A stretch of 33,329 nt of DNA, taken from Anaeromyxobacter sp. GTDB taxonomy: Bacteria; Myxococcota; Myxococcia; Myxococcales; Anaeromyxobacteraceae. Shown here piece by piece: positions 14,140-17,960 of the stretch (position 1 is its first letter; every line of letters starts with the position of its first letter). The stretch is from assembly GCA_037441575.1 (NCBI GenBank), contig JBBIRX010000005.1, forward strand, positions 1-33,329, given 5' to 3'. The notes under the pieces are model-generated. The model ran no database searches. It saw only the letters and a list, made by a program, of their open reading frames with translations, and was not told the DNA's origin. The position numbers were made by a program, and so were the translations under genes.

Positions 14140-14213
14140 CGGGGCGTAGCGCAGCCTGGTAGCGCACTTGCTTGGGGTGCAAGTGGTCGCTGGTTCAAAT
14201 CCAGTCGCCCCGA
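14140..14213 (+). tRNA. tRNA-Pro (anticodon GGG)
   Basis: Hand-folded cloverleaf: acceptor cggggcg/cgccccg, D stem gcgc/gcgc, anticodon stem cttgc/gcaag with loop ttGGGgt, T arm gctgg-ttcaaat-ccagt, discriminator A. No encoded CCA. Confidence 0.9.
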
Positions 14214-14215
14214 CA
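14172..14215 (+). repeat. attL-like 44-bp direct repeat (3' part of tRNA-Pro)
   Basis: ttggggtgcaagtggtcgctggttcaaatccagtcgccccgaca, identical to 17917-17960. Confidence 0.85.
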
Positions 14216-14218
14216 GTT

Positions 14219-14266
14219 CGAAGGCCCTGACGTCTCTCGGGAAACCGGGTTGCGTCAGGGCCTTCG
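14219..14266 (+). terminator. Stem-loop downstream of tRNA-Pro (terminator-like)
   Basis: 14-bp stem cgaaggccctgacg / cgtcagggccttcg, 20-nt loop containing ctcgggaaaccg, then a weak T tract (ccttt). Confidence 0.45.
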
Positions 14267-14349
14267 CCTTTGGAGCCTGCTGGCCGAGTGGCTGCACGGG
14301 AGCAGCAATCGGACCACGGCATCTCGCGGAACGGCCCCCGGAGGGCGCC

Positions 14350-15000
14350 ATGACCACCCGCAGGCTCTACCGCCCCGTCGGCCTCCGCGAGCTGGAGCTC
14401 GTGCTCGACGCCGACTCCCGGGCGTTTCCCCCGCGCCTCCCGGCGCAGTCGATCTTCTACCCGGTGATGAACGGGGATTACGCCGCCCAGATCGCCCGCG
14501 AGTGGAACCCCACCGACGCGGCCTCCGGGTTCGCGGGCTTCGTCACCGAGTTCGACGTCGACGCCGATTACCTCTCCCGGTTCGAGATCGAGACCGTCGG
14601 CGCGAGCCGGCACCAGGAGCTCTGGGTCCCGGCCGAGGAGCTGCCGACCTTCAACGGCCACATCCGCTCTCGGGTGCGGACCACGAGCGCGTTCTACGGC
14701 CCCGCCTACGAGGGCCCGGTGCCGCTCCCGCTCCTCGTGAGGTCGCGCAACCCGCGCGAGCAGCTCAAGGTCCTGCACGCGGCCCTGGGGTACAACGGGA
14801 TGGACTTCGGCATGGAGGTCGCCGCCAACTGGAAGCTCGTGGTGGCCAACTTCGGGCTCTGGTCCGCCACGGCGCCCGGCGAGCAGGGACTCGCCCCGCC
14901 GGACGCCGCGCGAACCCTCTCGGCCGTCAAGACGATCTGGGACCAGCGTCATCCCGACCTGCCGCTCCCCGTCGGCGCGCTCGTGACCGGGCGGACGTAG
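14350..15000 (+). CDS. Hypothetical protein, 216 aa (islet cargo 1)
   Basis: ATG 4 nt after GGAGGG. Clean ORF with non-repetitive composition (LYRPVGLRELELV..., IFYPVMNGDYAAQIAREWN..., HQELWVPAEELPTFNGHI). I cannot place it in a named family from memory. Confidence 0.65.
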   Translation: MTTRRLYRPVGLRELELVLDADSRAFPPRLPAQSIFYPVMNGDYAAQIAREWNPTDAASGFAGFVTEFDVDADYLSRFEIETVGASRHQELWVPAEELPTFNGHIRSRVRTTSAFYGPAYEGPVPLPLLVRSRNPREQLKVLHAALGYNGMDFGMEVAANWKLVVANFGLWSATAPGEQGLAPPDAARTLSAVKTIWDQRHPDLPLPVGALVTGRT

Positions 15001-15284
15001 CTGGCGTCTCGGTCGGGGAGTTGCTGGACGCGTCAATCCGCAGCCAGCGCGCGACAACTGCCTTGACACTCAATGCCCGGCAGACCGTATTGGACCAGAC
15101 GCATGGTGTGGCCACCATGATCGGCGTGCCCGGCACCCCTATCGCTGCCGACGTTGTCGGGCTCGACCAACTTGTCGCGGGGTACGTCATCCGCCTTCTG
15201 GCGCTCCCCTCACACCGCCGAAGCCCCGGTTCAGTGTCGCGCGCAGCACTGGTACAAGAAATCCTTTCGGTCCCGGAGGTTCCT

Positions 15285-16811: not shown

Positions 16812-16865
16812 CCGGCTGCCTCGGACCCTTCCTCAATCGGATGGTGGCCGGTGAGCCCCTGTCCG

Positions 16866-17291
16866 TCAGTGGCGGGCCCGCAGCTCCTTGAGGAAGTCTC
16901 CTGGCCGCACGACTAGGACGCCTCGCAGCCCGGCGAGGTCGAGCAGGTGACGGTCGAGCGTGACGAGGAACTCCGCCTTCCCCGCGAGCGCTGCAGCCAC
17001 CACCATGTCGTCTCCCGGGTCGGCAGGCACGGCGCCCGCTGCTGAACCTGCCTCTACGCGCTCGGCCGTTGCAACGATGGCATCTACGAACCTCTGCCGA
17101 TCCACCCGGGCGGCCTGGCGCCTCACCTGGGGATACTCGACGGCGCGGCGGTACTCCGCCTCCAGCTCGTCGGTGATGACCAACTCCACGACTCCGGCCG
17201 CGACCGCCTCGAGGACCACGCGGGAGGCCGACGCCGGATTGGGCGTGGCGAGGGCGGCAACGACCACGGACGAGTCGAGGACGACCCTCAC
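16866..17291 (-). CDS. PIN-domain toxin
   Basis: MRVVLDSSVVVAAL (first Asp), ELVITDELEAEY, DDMVVAAALAGKAEFLVTLDRHL. 4-nt overlap with the upstream gene. Confidence 0.8.
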   Translation of the reverse strand: MRVVLDSSVVVAALATPNPASASRVVLEAVAAGVVELVITDELEAEYRRAVEYPQVRRQAARVDRQRFVDAIVATAERVEAGSAAGAVPADPGDDMVVAAALAGKAEFLVTLDRHLLDLAGLRGVLVVRPGDFLKELRARH

Positions 17292-17551
17292 GCGCCGCCC
17301 TTTCTCGCCGCCCGGGCCGCCTCCTCACCCAGCCGCTCGGCGGCGGTGTCGGACGCGGCGCGGCCGGGAGGCAGGCGCGCCAGGAGTTTCCGCAGGTTCT
17401 CGCCGGCCGCCTCGCGGAGGACCGCTCGCGCCTTTTCCTCGGCCGCCTGGCGCAGGAACTCGGACGGCCGCTTGTCAACGACTTTGGCGGCGCGGCGGAC
17501 GAGGTCGCGCAGCGCCTTGGTGGTCCGGTAGGTCTCGACGGTCTTCGGCAT
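17288..17551 (-). CDS. Putative antitoxin (small, basic, helical; RHH or DUF1778-like)
   Basis: 87 aa, position and overlap typical of a type II antitoxin; ...DKRPSEFLRQAAEEKARAVL. Confidence 0.55.
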   Translation of the reverse strand: MPKTVETYRTTKALRDLVRRAAKVVDKRPSEFLRQAAEEKARAVLREAAGENLRKLLARLPPGRAASDTAAERLGEEAARAARKGGA

Positions 17552-17581
17552 GGCGAGCTCCGTGTTACGTTTGTCCCTATC

Positions 17582-17758
17582 CTACTCTTGCCGCCCCCTC
17601 CCACGCCACCCGTCCCCCTGTGCGGCGCCGAGCGCCCCTGGCAGGAACCGGATTTGCTTCCCGATCCGTACGTGCGCCAACCGCCCCTCGGCGACGAGCT
17701 TGTAGATCGTGGCCCTGGACACCCGGAGCCCCCGCGCAGCCTCGGCCACCGTGAGCAT
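17582..17758 (-). CDS. Excisionase-family (MerR-like) helix-turn-helix DNA-binding protein
   Basis: MLTVAEAARGLRVSRATIYKLVAEGRLAHVRIGKQIRFLPGAL matches the excisionase-family HTH pattern. An upstream in-frame start at 17821 is possible. Confidence 0.75.
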   Translation of the reverse strand: MLTVAEAARGLRVSRATIYKLVAEGRLAHVRIGKQIRFLPGALGAAQGDGWRGRGRQE

Positions 17759-17916
17759 TCGACCCTGCGTCCCGAATCCCAGCAGCAAGGCAGCAGCAGA
17801 ATCTCTGCGAAGTCCGGCCAAACCTGGCGACCCGACGGAATCCCCGCCCTGGTCATCGCGAGTCGTTGCGAGGTCTTGCGAGCCCTGACCATCCCATGCA
17901 CGCTCCGTGAACGCCG

Positions 17917-17960
17917 TTGGGGTGCAAGTGGTCGCTGGTTCAAATCCAGTCGCCCCGACA
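17917..17960 (+). repeat. attR-like 44-bp direct repeat (tRNA-Pro 3' fragment, not a gene)
   Basis: Identical to 14172-14215. The upstream sequence cannot form the acceptor 5' strand, D arm or anticodon 5' stem. Confidence 0.85.

Follow-up and report, generated by a model that had tools for sequence, protein, structure and literature searches.

A probable non-autonomous, integrase-less derivative of a small integrative element family at a tRNA-Pro(GGG) gene of Anaeromyxobacter

Lambda-type elements that use a tyrosine integrase to integrate into tRNA genes recombine through a core and arm-type sites, and the gal and bio forms of lambda are defective transducing derivatives. CIME19258 and CIMEL3catR3 of Streptococcus thermophilus are reportedly examples of cis-mobilizable elements (CIMEs; Pavlovic 2004, Bellanger 2011). 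A CIME is an att-bounded derivative of an ICE or IME (PMC5704250, PMC6323972). PIN modules of the VapBC type are described as stabilising integrated elements, with sgiAT on SGI1 as an example (PMC5704250). Here we describe a 3.7-kb interval of an Anaeromyxobacter genome that is bounded by perfect direct repeats at a tRNA-Pro(GGG) gene. It lies in a window of 33,329 nucleotides, the whole stretch of DNA that was analysed, and probably derives from a family of small integrative elements that use this tRNA, having lost its integrase and its autonomy.

The sole tRNA called by ARAGORN in the window is an intact tRNA-Pro(GGG) on the forward strand (14140-14214); two syntenic relatives, L002 and L087, have an identical gene. 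The left att core is made up of the last 43 nt of the tRNA. This attL core (14172-14215, forward strand) starts with the anticodon loop's first nucleotide and recurs in direct orientation as the attR core (17917-17960, forward strand), a partial tRNA that lacks the 5' half, with 44 of 44 positions identical. A 23-mer from the repeat occurred exactly twice in the window and in none of 100 shuffles. No third core, even a degenerate one, was found in the window, including the part to the right of attR. A first-pass annotation, made from the letters alone, had reported a perfect 44-bp direct repeat at tRNA-Pro and a second copy without a 5' half. The alignment bears out both, and the 23-mer count agrees with the former; the division of the repeat into 42 nt of tRNA and 2 flanking nt needs correction, as the ARAGORN coordinates give 43 and 1.

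A metagenome scan with the exact 43-mer core returned 68 full tRNAs and 51 partial copies that share a single start position in the anticodon loop. This common boundary supports the view, already put forward in that annotation, that the repeats are att sites and not the remains of a decayed tRNA duplicate. Judged by sequence, the 44-bp repeats are genuine att cores. It is hardly credible that they represent a decayed tandem pair of tRNA-Pro genes or an assembly artefact of the 44-bp repeat. Similar hairpins do stand 3' of both copies, and short-k assemblies of the same sample do break right at the repeat, but the right copy starts at the nucleotide common to the 51 other partial copies and is preceded by a conserved 160-nt arm and an HTH_17 gene. 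Moreover, at 44 bp the repeat fits within a single sequencing read, and the contig crosses both junctions with unique sequence on either side. To the left of 17917 stands the conserved P arm of an element, not a tRNA 5' half or promoter, and the arrangement is not the tandem gene pair that the annotation had itself weighed as an alternative.

The family to which the cores belong consists of small elements, with about 5-10 kb between cores, and it is widespread among soil bacteria, abundant and apparently undescribed. In autonomous members the left core is followed by a hairpin, a tandem AGCAA motif at about +75, a tyrosine integrase gene on the reverse strand and a gene for an 80-aa HTH_17 protein. 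To the right of the cargo come a gene for a 58-64-aa HTH_17 protein, a second AGCAA tandem at -133 and the right core. Such autonomous elements would recombine, by means of the tyrosine integrase, with the segment of tRNA-Pro(GGG) that runs from the anticodon loop to the 3' end. Elements of the L143/L165 type have cores of 43-46 nt at both ends, as does the window element. In these complete, integrase-bearing copies the right-end HTH_17 gene is homologous to that of the window, and no relaxase, type IV secretion, conjugation or mobilisation genes were detected. The window belongs to an Anaeromyxobacteraceae genome: upstream of the tRNA, it is syntenic with L002, L010 and L003 at 85-94% amino acid identity, with the OmpA gene more diverged. 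This synteny stops at the tRNA, and L002 carries a tyrosine integrase immediately 3' of the same gene. tRNA-Pro(GGG) is often the site of tandem arrays and partial deletions (L140, L088, L126); the window holds no array.

The ends of the interval carry arms comparable to those of the family, the left one slightly degenerate. Directly 3' of the tRNA, at the start of the P' arm, lies a terminator-like hairpin (14219-14266, forward strand; -40.4 kcal/mol, z -6.5), and a second hairpin stands behind attR (17964-18010, forward strand; -35.2 kcal/mol, z -7.4), its closest match being the hairpin of L002 (83%). The two share a CUCGGGAAACCG loop, so the similarity extends beyond the 44-bp repeat, a feature not mentioned in the first-pass annotation. 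A homologous hairpin is found 3' of nearly every core copy in the metagenome loci. A consensus terminator scan called neither window hairpin because the T tracts are short, while folding shows high stability. As no AGCAA tandem lies behind it, the attR hairpin is taken as flank outside the element. The P'-arm tandem (14291-14308, forward strand) consists of GCTGCAC and GCAGCAA, with starts 11 nt apart, and lies 78 nt after the core, against a family position of about +75; its first repeat is degenerate (TGCAC) and its second intact. It aligns with AGCAA-N6-AGCAA at +72 to +76 in 16 family sites among the first 80 loci, the set to which the arm statistics are limited. The AGCAA block is absent from L217, a relative never invaded by such an element.

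The P arm (17759-17916, forward strand) carries a GCAGCAA/GCAGCAG tandem at 17782-17799 and TTGCGAG repeats at 17866 and 17876. Its AGCAA at 17784 lies at -133 from the core, and the second repeat, AGCAG, has one mismatch. Within the first 80 loci, the tandem was present at -133/-134 in 11 partial sites and upstream of 0 of 47 full tRNAs; the AGCAA columns are invariant in an alignment of seven P arms. Like the family's right ends, that of the window combines this tandem with an inward-reading HTH_17 gene in the 58-64-aa class. GCAGCAA occurs twice in the window, no more often than chance would give, so the motif is meaningful only because its positions are conserved. The right arm of the window element is complete and the left arm slightly degenerate; set against L082 and L131, its nearest relatives, the element has a degenerate repeat on either side. 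The AGCAA repeats presumably act as protein-binding arm sites.

The interval contains an HTH gene, a PIN toxin-antitoxin pair and two further genes, as the first-pass annotation had described. Adjoining the P arm, the reverse strand encodes a 58-aa HTH_17 or 'excisionase family' protein (17582-17758; PF12728, E 3e-13; TIGR01764, E 8e-13) that shares 51% identity with its counterpart at the right end of L165, which bears an integrase (E 2e-11). The gene that had been read as an excisionase-type HTH at the right repeat is the conserved end gene of the element: HTH_17 lies within 400 nt in 11 of 11 right arms with the AGCAA tandem (first 80 loci). Also on the reverse strand are a PIN_3 toxin gene (VapC-like; 16866-17291; PF13470, E 7e-20; TIGR00305) and a small antitoxin gene (17288-17551), which overlap by 4 nt; the antitoxin has a weak TacA1-like Pfam match (E 1.6e-4). 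The pair recurs in L131 and L213 and fits a type II PIN (VapBC-like) layout. In L131 the whole right-end module stands beside a partial core, with the PIN gene in the same position as in the window and 84% DNA identity (PIN 83%, antitoxin 95% and HTH 79% at the amino acid level). The HTH and PIN proteins are the only ones to match PHROGs. The PIN operon beside the right-end HTH_17 gene probably stabilises the island. A cargo gene (15285-16811, forward strand; GC3 0.864) encodes a predicted 508-aa lipoprotein (signal ...AALAAC), an orphan with no Pfam, NCBIfam, PHROG or PADLOC match and no relatives in the metagenome scan. Homology with the cargo protein of L165 was considered and rejected, as the comparison shows none.

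A low-GC3 block continues across attR to about 20270. Just outside attR, and of interest as context only, an AbiEi/AbiEii toxin-antitoxin (abortive-infection) pair (18141-19618, forward strand; Pfam and PADLOC; GC3 0.88) forms part of a second low-GC3 block and has homologues inside the L147 element.

The interval contains no recombinase. None was found in a six-frame Pfam scan of 14100-18100 at E<=1, in Pfam scans of the likely genes across the 33-kb window, or in NCBIfam, PHROGs and PADLOC searches. Searches of the whole window by tblastn with the integrases of L087, L088 and L002 gave no match, and neither did the 80-aa HTH_17 protein of L087. The first-pass annotation had likewise seen no recombinase and had held that one inside the interval would overturn its reading; the six-frame Pfam, gene and tblastn searches agree that there is none. 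In the family, a tyrosine integrase of about 400 aa stands by the P' arm and is followed by the 80-aa HTH_17; the window has neither.

The place of the integrase is filled by ORF216 (14350-15000, forward strand), which encodes a 216-aa protein of a widespread unnamed family with more than 5000 homologues and has host-like codon usage. Its GC3 is 0.963, compared with 0.97-0.99 in the flanking core genes and 0.83-0.90 in the rest of the interval. In the never-invaded L217, ORF216 natively adjoins tRNA-Pro: this tRNA, which has a compensatory T-arm variant of its own, is followed by the hairpin and ORF216, with no integrase. That ORF216 might be a hidden recombinase was considered and rejected, since it belongs to a widespread chromosomal family and its AlphaFold model (pLDDT 95) gives only a weak match to an ADP-ribosyltransferase-like fold. 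Similarity to L082, L087 and L217 breaks off at 14984-15002 (for L082, DNA homology stops at 15002). The non-coding joint that follows, between the host-type gene and the foreign cargo (15001-15284, no strand assigned), has no similarity to any fetched locus and is the presumed breakpoint. A related arrangement occurs in the L087 type, in which the core, hairpin, tandem and ORF216 are followed by an integrase and HTH_17 on the reverse strand, so that ORF216 and the integrase stand tail-to-tail; the contig of this type stops before the right end of the element.

The left end of the window element is closest to L082 (90.6% nt) and the right end to L131 (84% nt), and in neither of these loci are the two types of end joined. 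These observations could be taken to mean that the interval is a patchwork left at a hot spot by one integration or deletion after another and never moved as one unit, its left core, arm scar and ORF216 stemming from an old event that is also seen in L082, and its right arm and core from another element. The fusion of P' arm and ORF216 is indeed shared with L082, where no right core lies within 7.7 kb, the right-end module is shared with L131, where ORF216 is absent, the low-GC3 block crosses attR, and arrays and partial deletions are frequent at this tRNA. However, simple integration always inserts new DNA after the 5' half of the tRNA and ahead of the old flank. A right arm 3' of ORF216 requires that ORF216 travelled with the element or that a further rearrangement took place, and none is documented here. 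We consider a patchwork of this kind quite unlikely.

The 44/44 identity of the repeats had been read in the first-pass annotation as a sign of recent insertion or of working att sites. A left end is informative if it includes the tandem and 1.5 kb or more of sequence (n=15); the integrase is intact in 8 of these, present as fragments in 6 and absent in 1, which amounts to decay in 7 of 15. Among repeat-bounded copies, two of four (L140, L197) have perfect cores but only integrase fragments. All 51 partial copies are 43/43 identical to the tRNA, by construction of the exact scan, while element proteins are only 50-80% identical. Because integrase decay is common in the family, perfect repeats are no argument for recency or activity, and the decayed L140 and L197 speak against the annotation on this point. 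Its further suggestion, a minimal satellite, fares no better if taken as a designed state, given the frequency of decay and the mosaic nature of the interval, with its host-type gene.

Since both arms hold the family motif at canonical distances, the element could conceivably, in mechanistic terms, use an integrase provided in trans. This keeps one part of the earlier proposal of trans mobilisation alive; the other part, actual movement, finds no counterpart in an attP junction, an empty site or a second copy in genome, metagenome or viral collections. An attP junction would read …CGTGAACGCCG + core + GTTCGAAGGCCCTGACG…, and an empty attB would read tRNA + core + AAACGAAGGCCGCAGC…. The comparison with relatives that the annotation had proposed yielded no empty site: syntenic relatives from the OmpA genome scan share only the terminator hairpin with the window 3' of the tRNA, and in the metagenome loci no full tRNA precedes the hairpin of the window's right flank. 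No other copy of ORF216, lipoprotein and PIN module between two cores was found, and the PIN gene and core had no matches among viral contigs. Exact ORF216 and AbiEi proteins occurred only on short contigs of one sample, SRR11582159. These contigs match parts of the window at 100% identity and end at the 44-bp repeat, where short-k assemblies break. A 3750-bp Logan contig was considered as a circle and rejected, as its ends overlap by 5 nt and lie k-1 from the repeat, which fits a graph break and not a circular form.

It is thus rather doubtful that the interval is an active satellite that never needs an integrase of its own, has working attL and attR sites and an HTH that sets the direction of excision, and is regularly moved by the integrase of a related tRNA-Pro(GGG) element. 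The canonical motif distances in both arms, the intact HTH_17, PIN operon and cores, the lack of integrase debris and the abundance of helper-type elements in related genomes all fit such a satellite, and the order core, ORF216, cargo, HTH, core might be expected from an integrase-less circle with a captured flank. Yet none of the traces of movement sought was found, each arm has a degenerate repeat in comparison with L082 and L131, and a helper of the same family would sit in the same tRNA, where there is no tandem element. The intact cores carry no weight, as decayed family copies with perfect cores are common.

A non-autonomous, integrase-less derivative remains the most probable identity of the interval, and we infer the order of events and any present mobility as follows. 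An ancestor may have excised imprecisely and so captured ORF216 from the chromosomal flank. The autonomous L087 type has ORF216 tail-to-tail with its integrase, and in the window element the integrase and the 80-aa HTH_17 gene would have been lost later. A deletion of the integrase in situ is not directly visible because no integrase fragment is left in the interval. Integration, aided in trans, of an integrase-less circle would yield the same structure. By itself the element could neither excise nor integrate; it would need the integrase of a related element, acting in trans or after adjacent integration (accretion, with cis-mobilisation as for CIMEs). That it is a working hitch-hiker, an integrase-less circle born of imprecise excision, with ORF216 and a complete hybrid att site, that was integrated in trans and can still be mobilised, is unlikely. 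If it were so, the locus would be a natural myxobacterial case of gene capture resembling specialised transduction, followed by trans-integration as the satellite of a small integrative element.

If the derivative reading is correct, a myxobacterial example joins the known class of att-bounded integrase-less elements, together with an apparently undescribed, abundant tRNA-Pro(GGG)-specific family that has an unusually rigid arm layout, frequent decay and perfect cores. The find itself is fairly ordinary and will not surprise mobile-element specialists, because decayed family copies are frequent. It does carry a caution, as perfect direct repeats at a tRNA neither date an insertion nor prove activity, and the host gene trapped between the repeats hints at capture via imprecise excision.

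Like the phage satellites (P4-like, PICI, PLE), the window element is small, site-specific and dependent on another element. In contrast, those satellites have their own integrase, replication/primase and helper-hijacking genes, none of which was found here by Pfam or PHROG. The resemblance to lambda-type elements in tRNA genes lies in the block of identity from the anticodon loop to the tRNA 3' end, in the motifs at fixed arm distances and, in autonomous relatives, in an integrase that reads towards the core. A host gene of the right flank now lies inside the element, as after the imprecise excision that gives lambda gal and bio. The element differs in having no phage structural or replication genes, and its AGCAA arm sites are putative. 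As with sgiAT, one end of an integrated element carries a small antitoxin gene and, overlapping it from downstream, the gene of a PIN_3 toxin; unlike sgiAT, the window antitoxin has only the weak TacA1-like family match, and a stabilising role would follow by analogy. The closest likeness is to CIMEs, and this label fits by behaviour only, because neither conjugation nor mobilisation genes could be detected in the parent family: its autonomous relatives (L143, L165, L087) have an integrase, with no relaxase or type IV secretion detected. The host is also a myxobacterium, not a firmicute, and the left end holds a captured host gene. As in CIMEs, attL and attR are kept, integration genes are lost and transfer genes are absent. 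The element occupies the 3' end of a gene that also serves related autonomous elements as their target, and by analogy it could in principle be moved once such an element integrates alongside.

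The only tRNA gene in the window is a tRNA-Pro(GGG) at 14140-14214. Its 3'-terminal 43 nt and one flanking base (14172-14215) are repeated with no mismatch at 17917-17960, where the tRNA 5' half is missing; the first-pass annotation had described this perfect repeat and the truncated second copy. The left edge of the repeat coincides with the anticodon loop's first nucleotide. A 23-mer taken from the repeat has two occurrences in the window, against none in 100 shuffles, and no third core copy, degenerate copies included, was found in the window. A very stable hairpin follows each copy on its 3' side, with the same loop in both (-40.4 and -35.2 kcal/mol). 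Five genes lie between the repeats: a 216-aa ORF directly behind the left arm (ORF216, 14350-15000), a lipoprotein-like ORF of 508 aa (15285-16811) and, on the reverse strand, a PIN_3 toxin (16866-17291), a small antitoxin (17288-17551) and a 58-aa HTH_17/TIGR01764 protein (17582-17758). A solitary further PIN-domain gene is found at 6216-6608. The earlier description of the interval as integrase-less was upheld: six-frame Pfam searches of 14100-18100 (E<=1) found no domains other than HTH, antitoxin and PIN, Pfam recognised no recombinase among the likely genes of the 33-kb window, and tblastn with three integrases from relatives gave no match.

An exact 43-mer scan of JGI metagenomes returned at least 124 sites on at least 120 contigs. 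The 124 sites listed comprise 68 full tRNAs, 51 partial copies and 5 copies clipped at contig ends. All 51 listed partial copies share one start boundary, and a hairpin lies 3' of nearly every listed core copy. This shared boundary, together with the conserved arms, confirms that the repeats are att sites; they are the att cores of a large element family. The 44/44 identity had been read as a sign of recent insertion or of working sites. This argument fails, since all partial cores listed from the exact scan are perfect, those of decayed elements included, and they span elements whose proteins are only 50-80% identical. Directly 3' of many cores is a reverse-strand tyrosine integrase of the type seen in the comparison loci L087 and L002, usually followed by an 80-aa HTH_17 protein.

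The arms of the family were defined on the first 80 loci. The P (right) arm carries an inward-reading HTH_17 gene of 58-64 aa and, exactly 133-134 nt 5' of the core, an AGCAA-N6-AGCAA tandem, which was present at 11 partial sites and before none of 47 full tRNAs; the HTH_17 gene was no more than 400 nt away at 11/11 of these tandem-bearing arms. The P' (left) arm has the same tandem 72-76 nt 3' of the core (16 sites), just before the integrase stop codon. The window fits the layout of both arms, with a slightly decayed left arm: on the right, AGCAA stands at 17784 (-133) with AGCAG as the second repeat and TTGCGAG repeats at 17866 and 17876, and on the left the tandem (14291-14308, +78) has a degenerate first repeat. 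GCAGCAA occurs twice in the window, both times in the arms, a count that alone is not above chance, so that the conserved positions carry the weight. The AGCAA repeats are putative binding sites for the integrase or the HTH protein.

A pair of cores is present on four of the listed contigs. The elements of L143 (6.5 kb) and L165 (6.4 kb) are complete and their integrase is intact, and in L140 and L197 the integrase is reduced to fragments; in L197 one arm repeat is degenerate too. Besides the integrase, L143 and L165 encode two HTH_17 proteins and a HicB-like/XRE protein, alongside a few genes of unknown function. No replication, conjugation or capsid genes were recognisable in these two elements. 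Fifteen left ends have the tandem and are covered by 1.5 kb of sequence or more; in these the integrase was intact in 8, fragmentary in 6 and missing in 1, and integrase decay is common in the family. A second, P4-like integrase of 450 aa with a weak Arm-DNA-bind_3 match (L088:898-2250, L126 and L124) is placed upstream of partial tRNA-Pro cores that have the ~400-aa type directly 3', and it seems that a single core serves two element families, which form tandem arrays. We found no published description of the tRNA-Pro(GGG) family in the literature; it is apparently undescribed but conventional in targeting a tRNA.

Pfam identified housekeeping genes to the left of the interval (TyrRS, FtsJ, ferredoxin, TPP enzyme, OmpA) and AbiEi/AbiEii, regulators, peroxiredoxin, an ABC transporter and an arsenic cluster to the right. 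This last cluster (28812-31963) encodes an ArsP permease, ArsR, an ACR3-type SBF transporter and an LMW-phosphatase ArsC. The upstream genes are syntenic with the Anaeromyxobacteraceae/Myxococcales MAGs L002, L010 and L003 at 85-94% aa identity, except for the more diverged OmpA gene, and synteny ends just beyond tRNA-Pro, past the terminator hairpin. In L002 the same tRNA is followed first by a hairpin, next by a reverse-strand tyrosine integrase. The synteny break and this integrase mark tRNA-Pro as an integration hot spot in the lineage. The tRNA-Pro of L010 (11833-11916; 84 nt, anticodon AGG per ARAGORN) has a 9-nt insertion (GAGGGGGAA) in the anticodon loop, precisely at the att core's left boundary; recombination may have left this as a scar, or the tRNA may be disrupted. 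Just outside attR, 18141-20270 holds AbiEi/AbiEii and ArsR-like/AHSA1 pairs with GC3 lowered like that of the island (0.88-0.93); no third core closes this block, which resembles the remnant of an older, tandem island.

ORF216 is a host gene from a family of >5000 members, whose representatives in distant relatives are ordinary chromosomal genes away from any tRNA. At 0.963 its GC3 is like that of flanking core genes (0.97-0.99), against 0.83-0.90 in the AbiE block and elsewhere in the interval. In this clade it stands directly 3' of the tRNA gene. The family is unnamed; the AlphaFold model (pLDDT 95) has ~110 N-terminal residues weakly like the ADP-ribosyltransferase fold of Tpt1/KptA tRNA 2'-phosphotransferase, CC0527 and TreTu toxin (Foldseek E 4e-3 to 1e-2, TM 0.28). 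The comparison locus L217 has the order ferredoxin, isochorismatase, tRNA-Pro(GGG) with its own compensatory T-arm variant, hairpin and ORF216 (81% aa), and neither the AGCAA block nor an integrase is present there; we interpret it as a locus that was never invaded. Loci of the L087 type (ORF216 77% aa) read core, hairpin, tandem and ORF216, with the integrase and the 80-aa HTH_17 protein next, on the reverse strand; this series stands behind a full tRNA in L087 and, in L088 and L089, behind a partial core. The integrase reading frame here extends into the antisense of the ORF216 3' end. In a simple integration the incoming DNA always ends up between the 5' half of the tRNA and the former flank, so a host gene inside the repeats suggests travel with an element or some further rearrangement. 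ORF216 may have been carried along through imprecise excision.

The two ends of the interval have different nearest relatives. The left end, comprising tRNA, hairpin, tandem and ORF216, shares 90.6% identity with L082-L084, with homology ending at 15002, two bases past the ORF216 stop; no integrase or second core is present in L082-L084 within 7.7 kb. The right end is 84% identical in DNA to L131 (PIN 83%, antitoxin 95%, HTH 79% aa, then arm and core), where this module adjoins a partial core and where no ORF216, lipoprotein or integrase was found in 11.6 kb. L147 has the same HTH and arm, with an AbiE pair in place of the PIN pair; this pair, inside the element and adjoining HTH_17, is 62-64% identical to the window AbiE genes outside attR.

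In the interval both cores are kept, the right arm is complete and includes its HTH_17 gene, the left arm is slightly decayed, and the PIN pair forms a putative addiction module; the integrase and the 80-aa HTH_17 protein are both absent. The interval is most likely a defective integrative element resembling a cis-mobilizable element (CIME), a non-autonomous derivative of the tRNA-Pro(GGG) family, with a cargo that is most likely the captured ORF216 and an orphan lipoprotein. Mobilisation in trans, as the first-pass annotation had proposed, is mechanistically possible, but no empty site, second copy, attP junction or tandem helper was found, and we consider it improbable that the interval is an active satellite that arose through gene capture and then integrated with help in trans. 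A 3750-bp Logan contig corresponding to the interval (L001, SRR11582159; window 14197-17946) was rejected as a circle and attributed to an assembly break at the repeat: in a k=31 graph, contigs are expected to stop k-1 = 30 nt inside the repeat, and exactly this is seen where the contig ends on the right and where the adjacent contig L081 starts. On the left the contig begins at 14197, 11 nt short of the predicted 14186, which may be a sign of a further sequence variant in this sample. The window element differs from a CIME in that conjugation genes are not detectable in its parent family, and the putative capture of ORF216 can be likened to the formation of lambda gal/bio by imprecise excision.
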